Shown: in pieces, positions 58,059 through 60,776 of the stretch
Numbering within the stretch: position 1 is the stretch's first letter
Layout of the letters: each line of letters opens with the position of its first letter
NCBI GenBank assembly: GCA_016201265.1
Contig: JACQDD010000210.1
Coordinates: forward strand, 3,102 to 67,101
Direction of reading: 5' to 3'
Length of the DNA: 64,000 nucleotides
Origin: Terriglobales bacterium
Lineage (GTDB): Bacteria > Acidobacteriota > Terriglobia > Terriglobales > Acidobacteriaceae
Notes under the pieces: generated by a model
The model's input: only the letters and a program-made list of their open reading frames with translations
Told to the model about the DNA's origin: nothing
Databases searched by the model: none
Made by a program: the position numbers and the translations under genes

Positions 58059-60776
58059 TTACGTCTGAACCCCTGCTGACAACTGGCTGCCATCGGCCGC
58101 CGCGATCAGGCCCGGTACATCCAGAATGTCGGTAACGCGTTTCTGGATCACGGCCGAGCCCAGCACGCCTTTACGTTCGGTTTGGCGCTGCATGACAAAC
58201 GATTCCTCGACGATGTCCAGAATGCGGTCCACCACCAGCCCCACACTTCGCCCTTGGTCGGCATAGACCACGACATGCAACGATTCCTGGCCGGCCTCAG
58301 CCGCCTTCCGGCGCTTGGTCTGCAGCACTTCGGAAACCCAGACGAGGGGCATGATCTGCCCCCGGTACTGCACCGCTTCCTGGTCGCCGGCGACCTCGAT
58401 GGTGTCGCGGGGAAATTCCTCGAGGCGCGCCACCAGGGAGAGGTCGATGGCCATTCTCCCGTTTTCCCCGTACTGGAACAGCAGCACGGCATTGCGCTGA
58501 TTCCCGTCGGCAACCCCGAGCGACTGCTTTCCTTCTTTTTCCGCCAGAGCACGGTCCCGGACTTCACTGACCACGTGGGCGCGCTGCGCCAGGCCCAGCA
58601 CATCGAGAATCAGGGCCACCCGGCCGTCTCCCATGATCGTCGCCCCGGCGTAGGCGTTGACGCTCTTCAACTGTTTGCTGAGCGGCTTGACCACGATCTC
58701 CTCGGTGTCGTTGATTTCGTCCACGACCAGCCCAAACTGCTGGTCACCGGCCCGCAGCACCACGATGTTGGCGTTCTGGGTCTCAAGGGCCTTCTTTTCC
58801 ACAACCGTCAGCAGCTCGATAATCTTCTTGGAGAGTGGCTCCACCTTGCTGAACTCGCGCTGGGCCTGGCTCTGGTTGCCATTCACGTTGAGAACGACGA
58901 TTTCCCGCACGAGTTCATGAAAGTGCTTGTGCGTCGCTTCCAGCGCCTGCATCTCGTCGATGCTGCCGTAGTCTTTCAGGCCAGCCGAATAGAGCCATTT
59001 CCCCAAGGCACACTCCGTGGGAGAACCCGCTTGCTCCACCGTCATCGTGGTCTTACCGTCCAGAAGCTGTCGGAGCCGGCCGATCCACTGCTCGTGCTTG
59101 TGCCGGGCCTGGGTGAAATCCAGTGATTCCCATTTGGAACTGGAAGTTGTTGGCGCGGCTGCCGCGTCCTGCGCTTGGGCGTCGGCTTTCAGTTCCCGGT
59201 TTAAATACACGAGGGGAAGGAGTTGCCCCCGCAGCCGGTGGACCGGCGCGCCATTGACCAGTTCAATGCCCTTGCGCGCCTGTTCTCCTTCCAGGCGCAC
59301 CAGTTCGAGCAGACTGACCTGCGGGATGGCGTAGCGGTCGCCGGTGGTGGTCACGATCAAGGCGGGGATGATGGCCAGGGTCAGCGGAATCTTCATGCGT
59401 ACGGTGGAGCCCTGTCCCGGCTTCGACTGCACGTCCACGGTACCGCCGATCTTTTCGATGTTGGTCTTCACCACGTCCATGCCCACGCCCCGGCCGGAAA
59501 CGTTGGTGACTTTTTCCGCCGTGGAGAAGCCCGGCAGGAAGATGAGGTTGGTAATCTCGCGCTCGGTCATCCGTGCTGCCTGATCGGCGCTGACCAGCGC
59601 CTTTTGCATGGCCTTGGTGCGGATTTTTTCGTAGTCCAGTCCGGCGCCGTCGTCGGTGATTTCGATGTTGACCTGCCCGCCCTCGTGAAAGGCCCGCAAG
59701 AACAGCCGGCCCTCTGGGTTCTTGCCCGCCGCGATCCGCGCCTCGGGACTTTCGATGCCGTGGTCCACGGAGTTGCGCACGATGTGGGTGAGCGGGTCCT
59801 TGACGGCCTCAATGATCGTCTTGTCGAGCTCGGTTTCCTTGCCTTCCATCTCGATGCGGACCTGTTTGCCGCAGCCCAGCGCCACATCCCGCACGGTGCG
59901 CGGGAACTTGCTCCAGATGTTGCCGATGGGCTGCATGCGGGTCTTCATTACGCCTTCCTGCAGCTCGGTGGTAATGAGGTTGAGCCGCTGGCTGGTGGCC
60001 AAGAGTCCGCTGTCTTCGCTGGAATTGGTAAATTGCACGATCTGGTTGCGGAGCAGGACCAGTTCGCCGACCCGGTTCATCAGCCGGTCGAGCTGGTTAA
60101 CGTCGACCCGAATGGTGCTGTCGCTGGCGCTCTGCCCGCGGGCCTGCTGCTGGACATTCAGCGCTTCGAGCACATCCTGCGGCTTCACGGCTCCCTTTTC
60201 CACCAGAATCTCGCCGACGTGCCGCGGGTCTCCCGCCTTTTGCTGCTCCACGGCGTCGTAGACCTCGCTTACCTTCGCCGCGCCCCGCTTGATTAGGATG
60301 TCGCCGATGCTAGGTACGGGATGCGGCGCATCGTTTTGCTGGGCTTCCTCTTTGGCCGGCGCCGGGTCGGGAGCCGGGTTCGGTTCCGCCTTCGGCTGGA
60401 GCAGCCGCGTCAAGGTGGCGATCAGTTCCTGGTCGTTGCGCTCACCTTCGTTGCCCGTGGCTTCAATGCTTCCCAGCATGTGGCGAACCGCATCCACCAT
60501 GGCCAGCAATGCGGTCGTAATTTCAGGGCTCAGCGTGAGCTGGCCATCACGCAGACGCGCCAGCAGGTTTTCCCCCACGTGGGCGACGGCTTCGAGCTTG
60601 CTGAACGCGAGAAATCCCGAAGTGCCTTTGATGGTGTGAATGGTGCGAAACACGCTCGCCAGGATTTCCTGGTCGGAGGGATGCTTTTCCAGTTCCACCA
60701 GGTCGCGGTCGAGCCGGTCCAGGTTCTCGTAACTTTCGACCAGAAACTCTTTGACGATGTCGTCGGAATCGTTCAT
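58059..60776 (-). CDS. cheA: Chemotaxis histidine kinase CheA, atypical (P1, MshEN-like repeats instead of P2, P3, P4, P5 interrupted by a CZB domain, extra CheW-like domain)
   Basis: 905 aa. It has the Hpt motif [12 protein letters not shown], the N-box [12 protein letters not shown], G1 DDGAGL and G2 GRGVGMDVV. The P5 halves lie at aa 472-530 and 669-729. The CZB motifs are HEQW / CALGKW / HKHFH. A second CheW-like domain spans aa 760-895. Confidence 0.92.
   Translation of the reverse strand: [905 protein letters not shown]

Follow-up and report, generated by a model that had tools for sequence, protein, structure and literature searches.

In the textbook account of chemotaxis, signals enter a pathway through its receptors, and the kinase CheA is a passive output enzyme under the control of its own P5 domain and of the coupling protein CheW. 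The present analysis concerns a cheA gene from a Terriglobales bacterium, carried on a 64 kb stretch of DNA (contig JACQDD010000210.1 of assembly GCA_016201265.1; the whole of this stretch is called the window), in whose product a zinc-binding CZB domain is nested inside P5. Residue numbers are those of its open reading frame (ORF) of 905 amino acids (aa). The arrangement suggests, by analogy with other CZB proteins, that the kinase itself may sense zinc or oxidants.

The closest described systems are chemoreceptors and a cyclase. The CZB chemoreceptors, such as TlpD and McpA, share with the window protein the family PF13682 and a site of three His and one Cys, and their CZB feeds a zinc or oxidant signal to the control of CheA (PMC6715182, PMC12422006). 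In those receptors the domain stands at the C-terminus and acts on CheA along a coiled coil, at a distance of about 140 Å (bioRxiv 10.64898/2026.01.16.699579), whereas in the window it lies within P5 of the kinase, beside residues that contact receptor and CheW. The second position of its Cys motif is Ala, while chemoreceptor subgroups typically have Arg (PMC8262984). The closest solved structure is that of the E. coli CZB-GGDEF diguanylate cyclase DgcZ (PDB 3T9O, 4H54), whose ligands H22, C52, H79 and H83 all align with H561, C589, H616 and H620. The window CZB and the cyclase subgroup both have a Trp at the third position after the first His (PMC8262984), and in both DgcZ and the window CheA the effector follows the C-terminal helix of the CZB. 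However, the output of DgcZ is a cyclase and that of the window protein the coupling domain of a histidine kinase; the window CZB is tethered at both ends, unlike that of DgcZ; and DgcZ uses a symmetric CZB dimer to position two GGDEF domains, a geometry that is not evident for P5. Both DgcZ and TlpD are controlled by zinc and hypochlorous acid (HOCl) (PMC8262984, PMC6715182).

Sensor domains have also been recorded on coupling proteins. The ‘CheW-CZB’ class, which makes up 1.4% of CZB proteins and is most abundant in Clostridia, has been catalogued and is unstudied (Perkins et al. 2021, PMC8262984). Like the window protein, its members combine a CZB with a CheW-like domain in a single chain, with Ala at motif position 2, a residue reported for the CheW-CZB and CZB-only groups (PMC8262984). 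The one stand-alone example from our searches, P0161, is a coupling protein of 295 aa with CheW at 19-154 followed by CZB at 181-294; its CZB is 43% identical to that of the window, kinase domains are lacking and the CheW fold is unbroken. The window protein differs from such stand-alone proteins in that P1, P3 and P4 are present and the CZB interrupts P5. The ‘CheW-CZB’ group has no formal definition and may include proteins of the CheA type; neither CheA nor nesting is mentioned in PMC8262984, and its supplement text mentions neither CheW nor CheA. A further paper cites CheW-CZB as a known architecture and explicitly sets all CheA architectures aside (PMC10653840). The same work describes CheWS of T. 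denticola (CheW with a CheR-like SAM sensor), a precedent for input at the coupling protein or baseplate instead of via the ligand-binding domain of a receptor, which differs in its sensor domain, in its tandem rather than nested order and in being built on CheW instead of the kinase. No paper on a CheA with a CZB, nested or otherwise, was found in our literature collection, which is incomplete; the preliminary description of this DNA had likewise known of no described example, and for the nested CheA-CZB this still holds, with the related ‘CheW-CZB’ class catalogued (PMC8262984). Hence the sensor domain and the pathway are known; new are the host domain and the domain-in-domain topology, and the site is mechanistically suggestive.

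The 905-aa protein is a genuine CheA chemosensory kinase. P1, P3 and P4 are present in CheA order, with Foldseek matches to the CheA structures 1b3q, 6s1k and 8c5v at E values of 1e-28 to 1e-29, and H47, the phospho-acceptor His of the Hpt domain, is invariant among homologues. The cut-offs of the NCBIfam CheA equivalogs were missed (NF041336, 421.7 vs 950 bits; NF007835, 390.8 vs 793) because these models represent specific CheA lineages; the shortfall reflects divergence and the insert, not another family. The Pfam CheW model scores 112 bits on the whole protein, in three stretches. A further complete CheW-like domain had been claimed after P5 at aa 760-895, and it is real: aa 741-905 match model positions 2-136 with 48 bits, and the domain aligns with 4jpb_A over 134 columns (TMt 0.83, Foldseek). 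In the homologue search the window CheA is 100% identical to MBI3646378.1 (P0001), which NCBI labels ‘MAG: chemotaxis protein CheW [Acidobacteriales bacterium]’. The name ‘CheW’ on a 905-aa kinase is a misannotation, which would hide the architecture from name-based surveys.

The nesting was examined by scanning pieces of the protein singly with the Pfam CheW model and then joining them in silico. The piece aa 466-542 corresponds to model positions 2-65 (25 bits) and the piece aa 661-740 to positions 66-136 (60 bits); joined, the two P5 halves give a single CheW match over positions 3-136 with 90.3 bits. The order of secondary structure assigned by DSSP is beta1-5 with alpha1, then the insert, then beta6-10 with alpha2, and the same strand pattern is found in the uninterrupted C-terminal CheW-like domain. 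In Foldseek comparisons the alignment of the full-length AlphaFold model with T. maritima CheA (1b3q_A, 368 residues) extends over 511 columns, that is, with a gap of about 143, and a model of the excised segment aligns with the 131-residue P5 of 4jpb_A over 248 columns. The P5 halves are near-identical to those of sister kinases that lack the CZB. The complementary halves, the uninterrupted P5 of the relatives of about 780 aa and the match to T. maritima CheA that spans the insert all argue, as had been proposed and largely at the level of sequence, that the CZB is nested in a single interrupted P5 and does not lie between two independent CheW domains. The proposed split of P5 is thus borne out as a pair of complementary model halves; its labelling as two ‘subdomains’ is not, since the pieces are pseudo-repeat halves.

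The insert carries a complete CZB, a module of about 118 aa. The region flagged in the preliminary description, 58791-59135 on the minus strand, corresponds to aa 548-662, and PF13682 matches aa 561-627 over its full length (model 1-64 of 64, E 7.7e-14), with 52.2 bits in the whole protein vs a gathering score of 29.4 and with 56.3 bits in the excised segment. The signature H561EQW, C589ALGKW and H616KHFH620 is present exactly as had been quoted, and its conservation, which had been left as a point to check, is evident from the 67 insert-bearing proteins among the best 120 homologues: H561, H616 and H620 are kept in 67/67 and C589 in 64/67, and in the C-x-L-G-x-W motif L591 is kept in 65/67 and both G592 and W594 in 67/67, while pairwise insert identity falls to 22%. 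The alpha1 residues D553, F554, R558 and W564 are also highly conserved. In the remaining 3/67 homologues Gly stands for the ligand Cys (e.g. AEQGALGEW) and all three His are kept; such variants are expected to be insensitive to oxidants and possibly still bind zinc. A profile built from 23 inserts finds DgcZ (3t9o) in the PDB with an E value of 8.7e-5. The predicted local distance difference test (pLDDT) of the CZB is 90-98 (AlphaFold, AF2), and the model aligns with DgcZ 3t9o_B over 118 columns (TMt 0.65, root-mean-square deviation 3.4 Å, E 4.6e-3, Foldseek). For this domain the models thus predict, at high confidence, a helical bundle like that of DgcZ, and its conserved ligand set suggests that it binds Zn2+. 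Rates of substitution (Nei-Gojobori, window vs six genomic relatives) give dN/dS of 0.14-0.35 for the insert vs 0.08-0.25 for the kinase core. Purifying selection acts on the insert, though in somewhat more relaxed form than on the core.

The position of the insert within P5 could be refined by aligning the spliced P5 to E. coli CheA (MG1655). Residues 528-531 fall opposite V567-V570 and residues 668-670 opposite Q579-I581, so that the insert takes the place of the E. coli loop N569-VAGAKTEAT-Q579 (V570-Q579). In E. coli, P5 subdomain 2 comprises residues 531-595, and subdomain 1 comprises 510-530 with 596-634 (PMC10410752). From this mapping and these limits the insert lies inside structural subdomain 2, and not between the two P5 subdomains as first described. 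In the core units 6S1K and 8C5V, V567, F568, N569 and V570 contact CheW, and Q579 and I581 contact the receptor, at less than 4 Å (PMC13098124, Table 1); the insertion loop is hence flanked by elements of CheW contact and of receptor contact. DSSP of the models gives four long CZB helices (554-572, 590-603, 607-631 and 635-667), the last of 33 residues and separated by a single residue from beta6 (aa 669-676). If the bundle runs up and down, as the helix order rather than the coordinates would indicate, both ends of the CZB would lie on the same side, a geometry that would readily allow insertion into a loop. The coordinates of these and the neighbouring features are collected in Table 1.

Table 1. 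Features of the nested-CZB kinase gene and its operon (positions in the window; residues of the 905-aa ORF)
Feature	Position	Strand	Basis or remark
cheA coding sequence, 905 aa	58059..60776	-	one unbroken ORF
P1/Hpt, aa 7-98	60483..60758	-	Pfam Hpt 55 bits
Two tandem MshEN-like c-di-GMP-binding motifs, aa 156-210	60147..60311	-	NCBIfam, phmmer
P3 dimerisation, aa 220-279	59940..60119	-	Pfam H-kinase_dim 58 bits
P4 ATP-binding kinase domain, aa 326-466	59379..59801	-	Pfam HATPase_c 67 bits; Foldseek CheA P4 structures TMt 0.9+
P5 first half, aa 468-530, beta1-beta5 and alpha1	59187..59375	-	CheW model 2-65; DSSP
Ala/Ser/Thr-rich flexible linker, aa 531-549 (19 aa)	59130..59186	-	pLDDT <50; loop sequences
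Nested CZB, aa 550-667, helical bundle (predicted)	58776..59129	-	Pfam CZB, pLDDT, DgcZ likeness, conservation
Codon of putative Zn ligand H561	59094-59096	-	
Codon of putative Zn ligand C589	59010-59012	-	
Codon of putative Zn ligand H616	58929-58931	-	
Codon of putative Zn ligand H620	58917-58919	-	
P5 second half, aa 668-735, beta6-beta10 and alpha2	58572..58775	-	CheW model 66-136; DSSP
Extra complete CheW-like domain, aa 760-895	58092..58499	-	Pfam CheW 48 bits, model 2-136
Stand-alone cheW, directly downstream of cheA	57594..58043	-	Pfam CheW 113 bits
Small ORF, 124 aa, hydrophobic by eye	57216..57590	-	no Pfam match; kept in some related operons
Chemoreceptor: Bac_globin, PAS, 2x HAMP_2, MCPsignal	54465..57182	-	Pfam
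cheB, receiver (REC) and methylesterase	53321..54385	-	Pfam
cheR	52353..53702	-	Pfam; listed ORF overlaps cheB, start codon uncertain
HDOD-domain protein, cluster end	51445..52563	-	kept in related operons

The architecture is far beyond chance and recurs in 67 of the best 120 homologues and in 12 species-representative genomes. The insert-bearing proteins, which come from NCBI, JGI, ENA and Logan, fall into 67 independent clusters, and one variant, P0279, was found on 230 contigs. The 53 homologues without the insert are about 780 aa long and have the same P5, with a short Ala/Ser-rich loop of 8-45 aa between near-identical flanks; the Ala/Ser/Thr-rich linker of the window protein is found in CZB-less relatives too. 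A CZB profile search of 1.84 billion cluster representatives returned 5713 CZB proteins at E <= 0.001. When the best 150 matches were inspected, 8 had CheW-like sequence on one or both sides of the CZB, at 44-64% identity to the window CheA, and appear to be fragments of the nested-CZB kinase type; P0161 is the stand-alone CheW with a C-terminal CZB, and the remainder of the 150 had no match to the CheW model. In a scan of GTDB species representatives with a profile of the CZB and the C-terminal half of P5, the wider family with P5 and the extra CheW-like domain was found in metagenome-assembled genomes (MAGs) labelled Acidobacteriota, Verrucomicrobiota, Planctomycetota, Gemmatimonadota and Myxococcota, and the nested CZB only in 12 species representatives (L001-L012), mostly Terriglobia and two labelled Verrucomicrobia.

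Within this family the CZB is an optional module, which has been lost repeatedly in close relatives. The CZB-less sister CheAs (among them P0025, P0026 and L015-L080; about 780 aa) share P1, the MshEN-like region, P3, P4, P5 and the extra CheW-like domain with the window protein, reach 92% identity to it in the core, and have the same operon and the short loop in place of the CZB. For example, P0025 is 92% identical in the core and is among the closest relatives of the window protein. In a neighbour-joining core tree of 190 taxa, which is unbootstrapped, kinases with and without the CZB are interleaved, the nearest neighbour of 31 of the 78 CZB-bearing sequences lacks the domain, and Fitch parsimony counts 44 changes; evolution by a single gain was rejected on this pattern. 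Some CZB-less loops retain pieces of the last CZB helix, as in P0065 (...SPRVLELTASVETQALESEIANIVVLR) and P0092 (...NVERKVLESQTAN), which points to internal deletion of the domain; fragments of this helix were observed in the loops of P0065, P0092, P0056 and P0063 (e.g. ...RVLELTASVETQALE... and ...NVERKVLE...).

Recombination may add to this pattern. The identities of insert and core are weakly correlated (Spearman 0.26), and recombinational exchange of the CZB between alleles may accompany its repeated loss. One relative, L009/P0104, differs from the window with a core dN of 0.125 and an insert dN of 0.60. Two of the nested-CZB kinases, L007 and L010, come from the MAGs labelled Verrucomicrobia; L007 shares 85% core identity with L041, a kinase without the CZB from a Verrucomicrobiota MAG, and members of the kinase family are 60-85% identical across MAGs of different phyla. 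This likeness across phyla suggests that the che operon has been transferred horizontally or that contigs were mis-binned.

The kinase gene is the first of a cluster on the minus strand, in the order cheA, cheW, small ORF, methyl-accepting chemotaxis protein, cheB, cheR and HDOD, and the same operon is kept beside kinases with and without the CZB. In the operon receptor no Pfam transmembrane or periplasmic ligand-binding domain was found, and from its domain content the protein is presumed to be soluble. Its globin is bacterial-like (truncated) and is present in some related operons only. The domains suggest an intracellular sensor of O2, NO or redox state; with globin and PAS domains in an apparently soluble receptor, the pathway as a whole seems dedicated to the sensing of oxygen or redox state inside the cell. 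In the ~900 bp upstream of cheA (60777-61678) there is no convincing ORF, Rfam match or clear sigma-70 promoter; the one promoter-like match of the scan falls within cheA itself, and the Rfam, promoter and terminator scans around cheA gave nothing relevant. Elsewhere in the window an Rfam match to the Acido-Lenti-1 small RNA (7011-7057, plus strand, 39.8 bits, gathering 37) is consistent with an acidobacterial origin of the DNA.

A second candidate sensory region lies between P1 and P3, in the usual place of P2, as a pair of MshEN-like stretches (aa 156-179 and 186-210). The region matches the c-di-GMP (cyclic di-GMP) domains of PilF 6f8l (E 7.7e-7, phmmer). The NCBIfam model NF053729 gives 32.3 bits, under its cut-off of 38, and the first Arg is replaced by S in one motif and by H in the other. 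In the family consensus the motifs are conserved in relatives with and without the CZB. The MshEN motif of Wang and colleagues is said to have the 24-residue consensus RLGxx(L/V/I)(L/V/I)xxG(L/V/I)(L/V/I)xxxxLxxxLxxQ, in tandem. Fusions of MshEN and CheA have been listed, and not studied, by Wang et al. 2016 (PMC5013675). Should the motifs of the window protein prove functional, two sensory inputs would be built into the kinase.

Taken by analogy with other CZB proteins, the arrangement is best read as a zinc- or redox-dependent switch that tunes P5 coupling and hence the control of the kinase, a reading to which we give a probability of about 55%. In the other proteins the bundle becomes rigid when zinc is bound, and the alpha3 region loosens once zinc is lost or the Cys is oxidised, a change that alters the attached effector (PMC8262984, PMC6715182, bioRxiv TlpD). 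The CZB of CheA would likewise bind Zn2+, and zinc loss or oxidation of the ligand Cys would loosen its bundle as in DgcZ and TlpD. The loosened bundle would then alter the coupling of the kinase to the receptor array through P5, because the bundle is proposed to be rigidly joined to beta6, where P5, receptor and CheW meet. Cytoplasmic zinc or redox state would in this way adjust the level of autophosphorylation without involvement of a receptor ligand domain, and the oxygen or redox pathway would receive its second input from the CZB of the kinase. A broader proposal, that the kinase is a multi-input sensor in which CZB zinc or redox state gates receptor control or array integration and the MshEN-like region adds c-di-GMP, is possible but is held more tentatively than the switch itself.

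Several observations weigh against the proposed switch. HOCl, the best-studied cue of CZB domains, is a signal of host inflammation and is not obviously relevant in soil, where zinc or the cytoplasmic redox state is more likely to be the cue than host-derived bleach. In an array, the P5 pair of one CheA dimer should be widely separated. The CZB structures of DgcZ, with its conserved alpha1 interface (PMC8262984), and of TlpD (bioRxiv) are both homodimers; together with the distant P5 pair this means that the signalling logic of the window protein may differ. In the AlphaFold models the P5 halves have low to moderate pLDDT (25-80), a weak confidence that leaves the intact three-dimensional fold to be argued mainly from sequence and comparative evidence. 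In the core, co-variation with CZB presence stood out at the junction residue 668 alone, the other associations being weak and confounded by phylogeny. There is no cheY nearby and no stand-alone receiver in the 64-kb window, where the receiver search found only CheB and two distant, unrelated regulators. Every carrier found is a MAG or a metagenome contig. Finally, the many losses of the CZB, seen in the 44 changes and the remnants, imply that the module is dispensable for the pathway.

Some of these points suit other explanations. The homodimers would fit a structural or assembly module, permanently loaded with zinc, that pairs with another CZB or a partner and staples CheA or organises the baseplate of a cytoplasmic array with no response to a signal. 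The sub-femtomolar zinc affinity of DgcZ is compatible with such a structural metal (PMC8262984), the alpha1 residues that are highly conserved here include D553, F554, R558 and W564, the operon receptor may form a cytoplasmic array, and the extra CheW-like domain of the family suggests an unusual baseplate. We nevertheless regard a purely structural role as unlikely, because close relatives do without the CZB in the same operon, so that it is not needed for assembly, because the redox-active Cys and the whole C-x-L-G-x-W motif are conserved, and because all experimentally studied CZBs (TlpD, DgcZ and McpA) are regulatory (PMC6715182, PMC8262984, PMC12422006).

The absence of co-varying core residues, together with the interleaving of kinases with and without the CZB, the deletion remnants, the faster evolution of the insert and a loop that is long and variable across relatives, would also be expected if the domain were a tolerated passenger in a permissive loop, with little effect on CheA and drifting to loss. 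This is less probable again than a structural role: the insert has a dN/dS well under 1, inserts with as little as 22% identity still share three unchanged ligands, several unchanged motif residues and, in nearly all cases, the Cys, no frameshifted or part-decayed full-length insert was seen among the 67, and a single variant is spread over 230 contigs. An artefact could take the form of a chimeric assembly, of a frame error, or of two independent partial CheW domains around an unrelated helical region that resembles a CZB. The metagenomic origin of the window and the NCBI protein name ‘CheW’ would be in keeping with such an artefact; it is effectively refuted, and we give it hardly any weight, by the single unbroken ORF, the recurrence in 67 independent clusters and 12 GTDB genomes, the HMM (hidden Markov model) halves 2-65 and 66-136 that splice to a 90-bit match, the full-length CZB match at nearly twice the gathering score and the fold match to the DgcZ CZB. 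The zinc- or redox-dependent switch at P5 thus remains the preferred reading.

The hypothesis of such a switch is directly testable with recombinant proteins, since the CZB-less sisters, at up to 92% core identity, are natural matched controls. The nested CZB would also serve as a natural allosteric probe of the control of P5 over CheA, which is an open mechanistic question. With this finding from soil Acidobacteriota, the kinase joins receptors, cyclases and stand-alone CheW proteins as a known context of the CZB, and a sensor in P5 would be a natural case of direct, receptor-independent input to the kinase. If the multi-input reading is true, the kinase would also be a site of perception, with the CZB as a plug-in that is gained and lost in natural populations.

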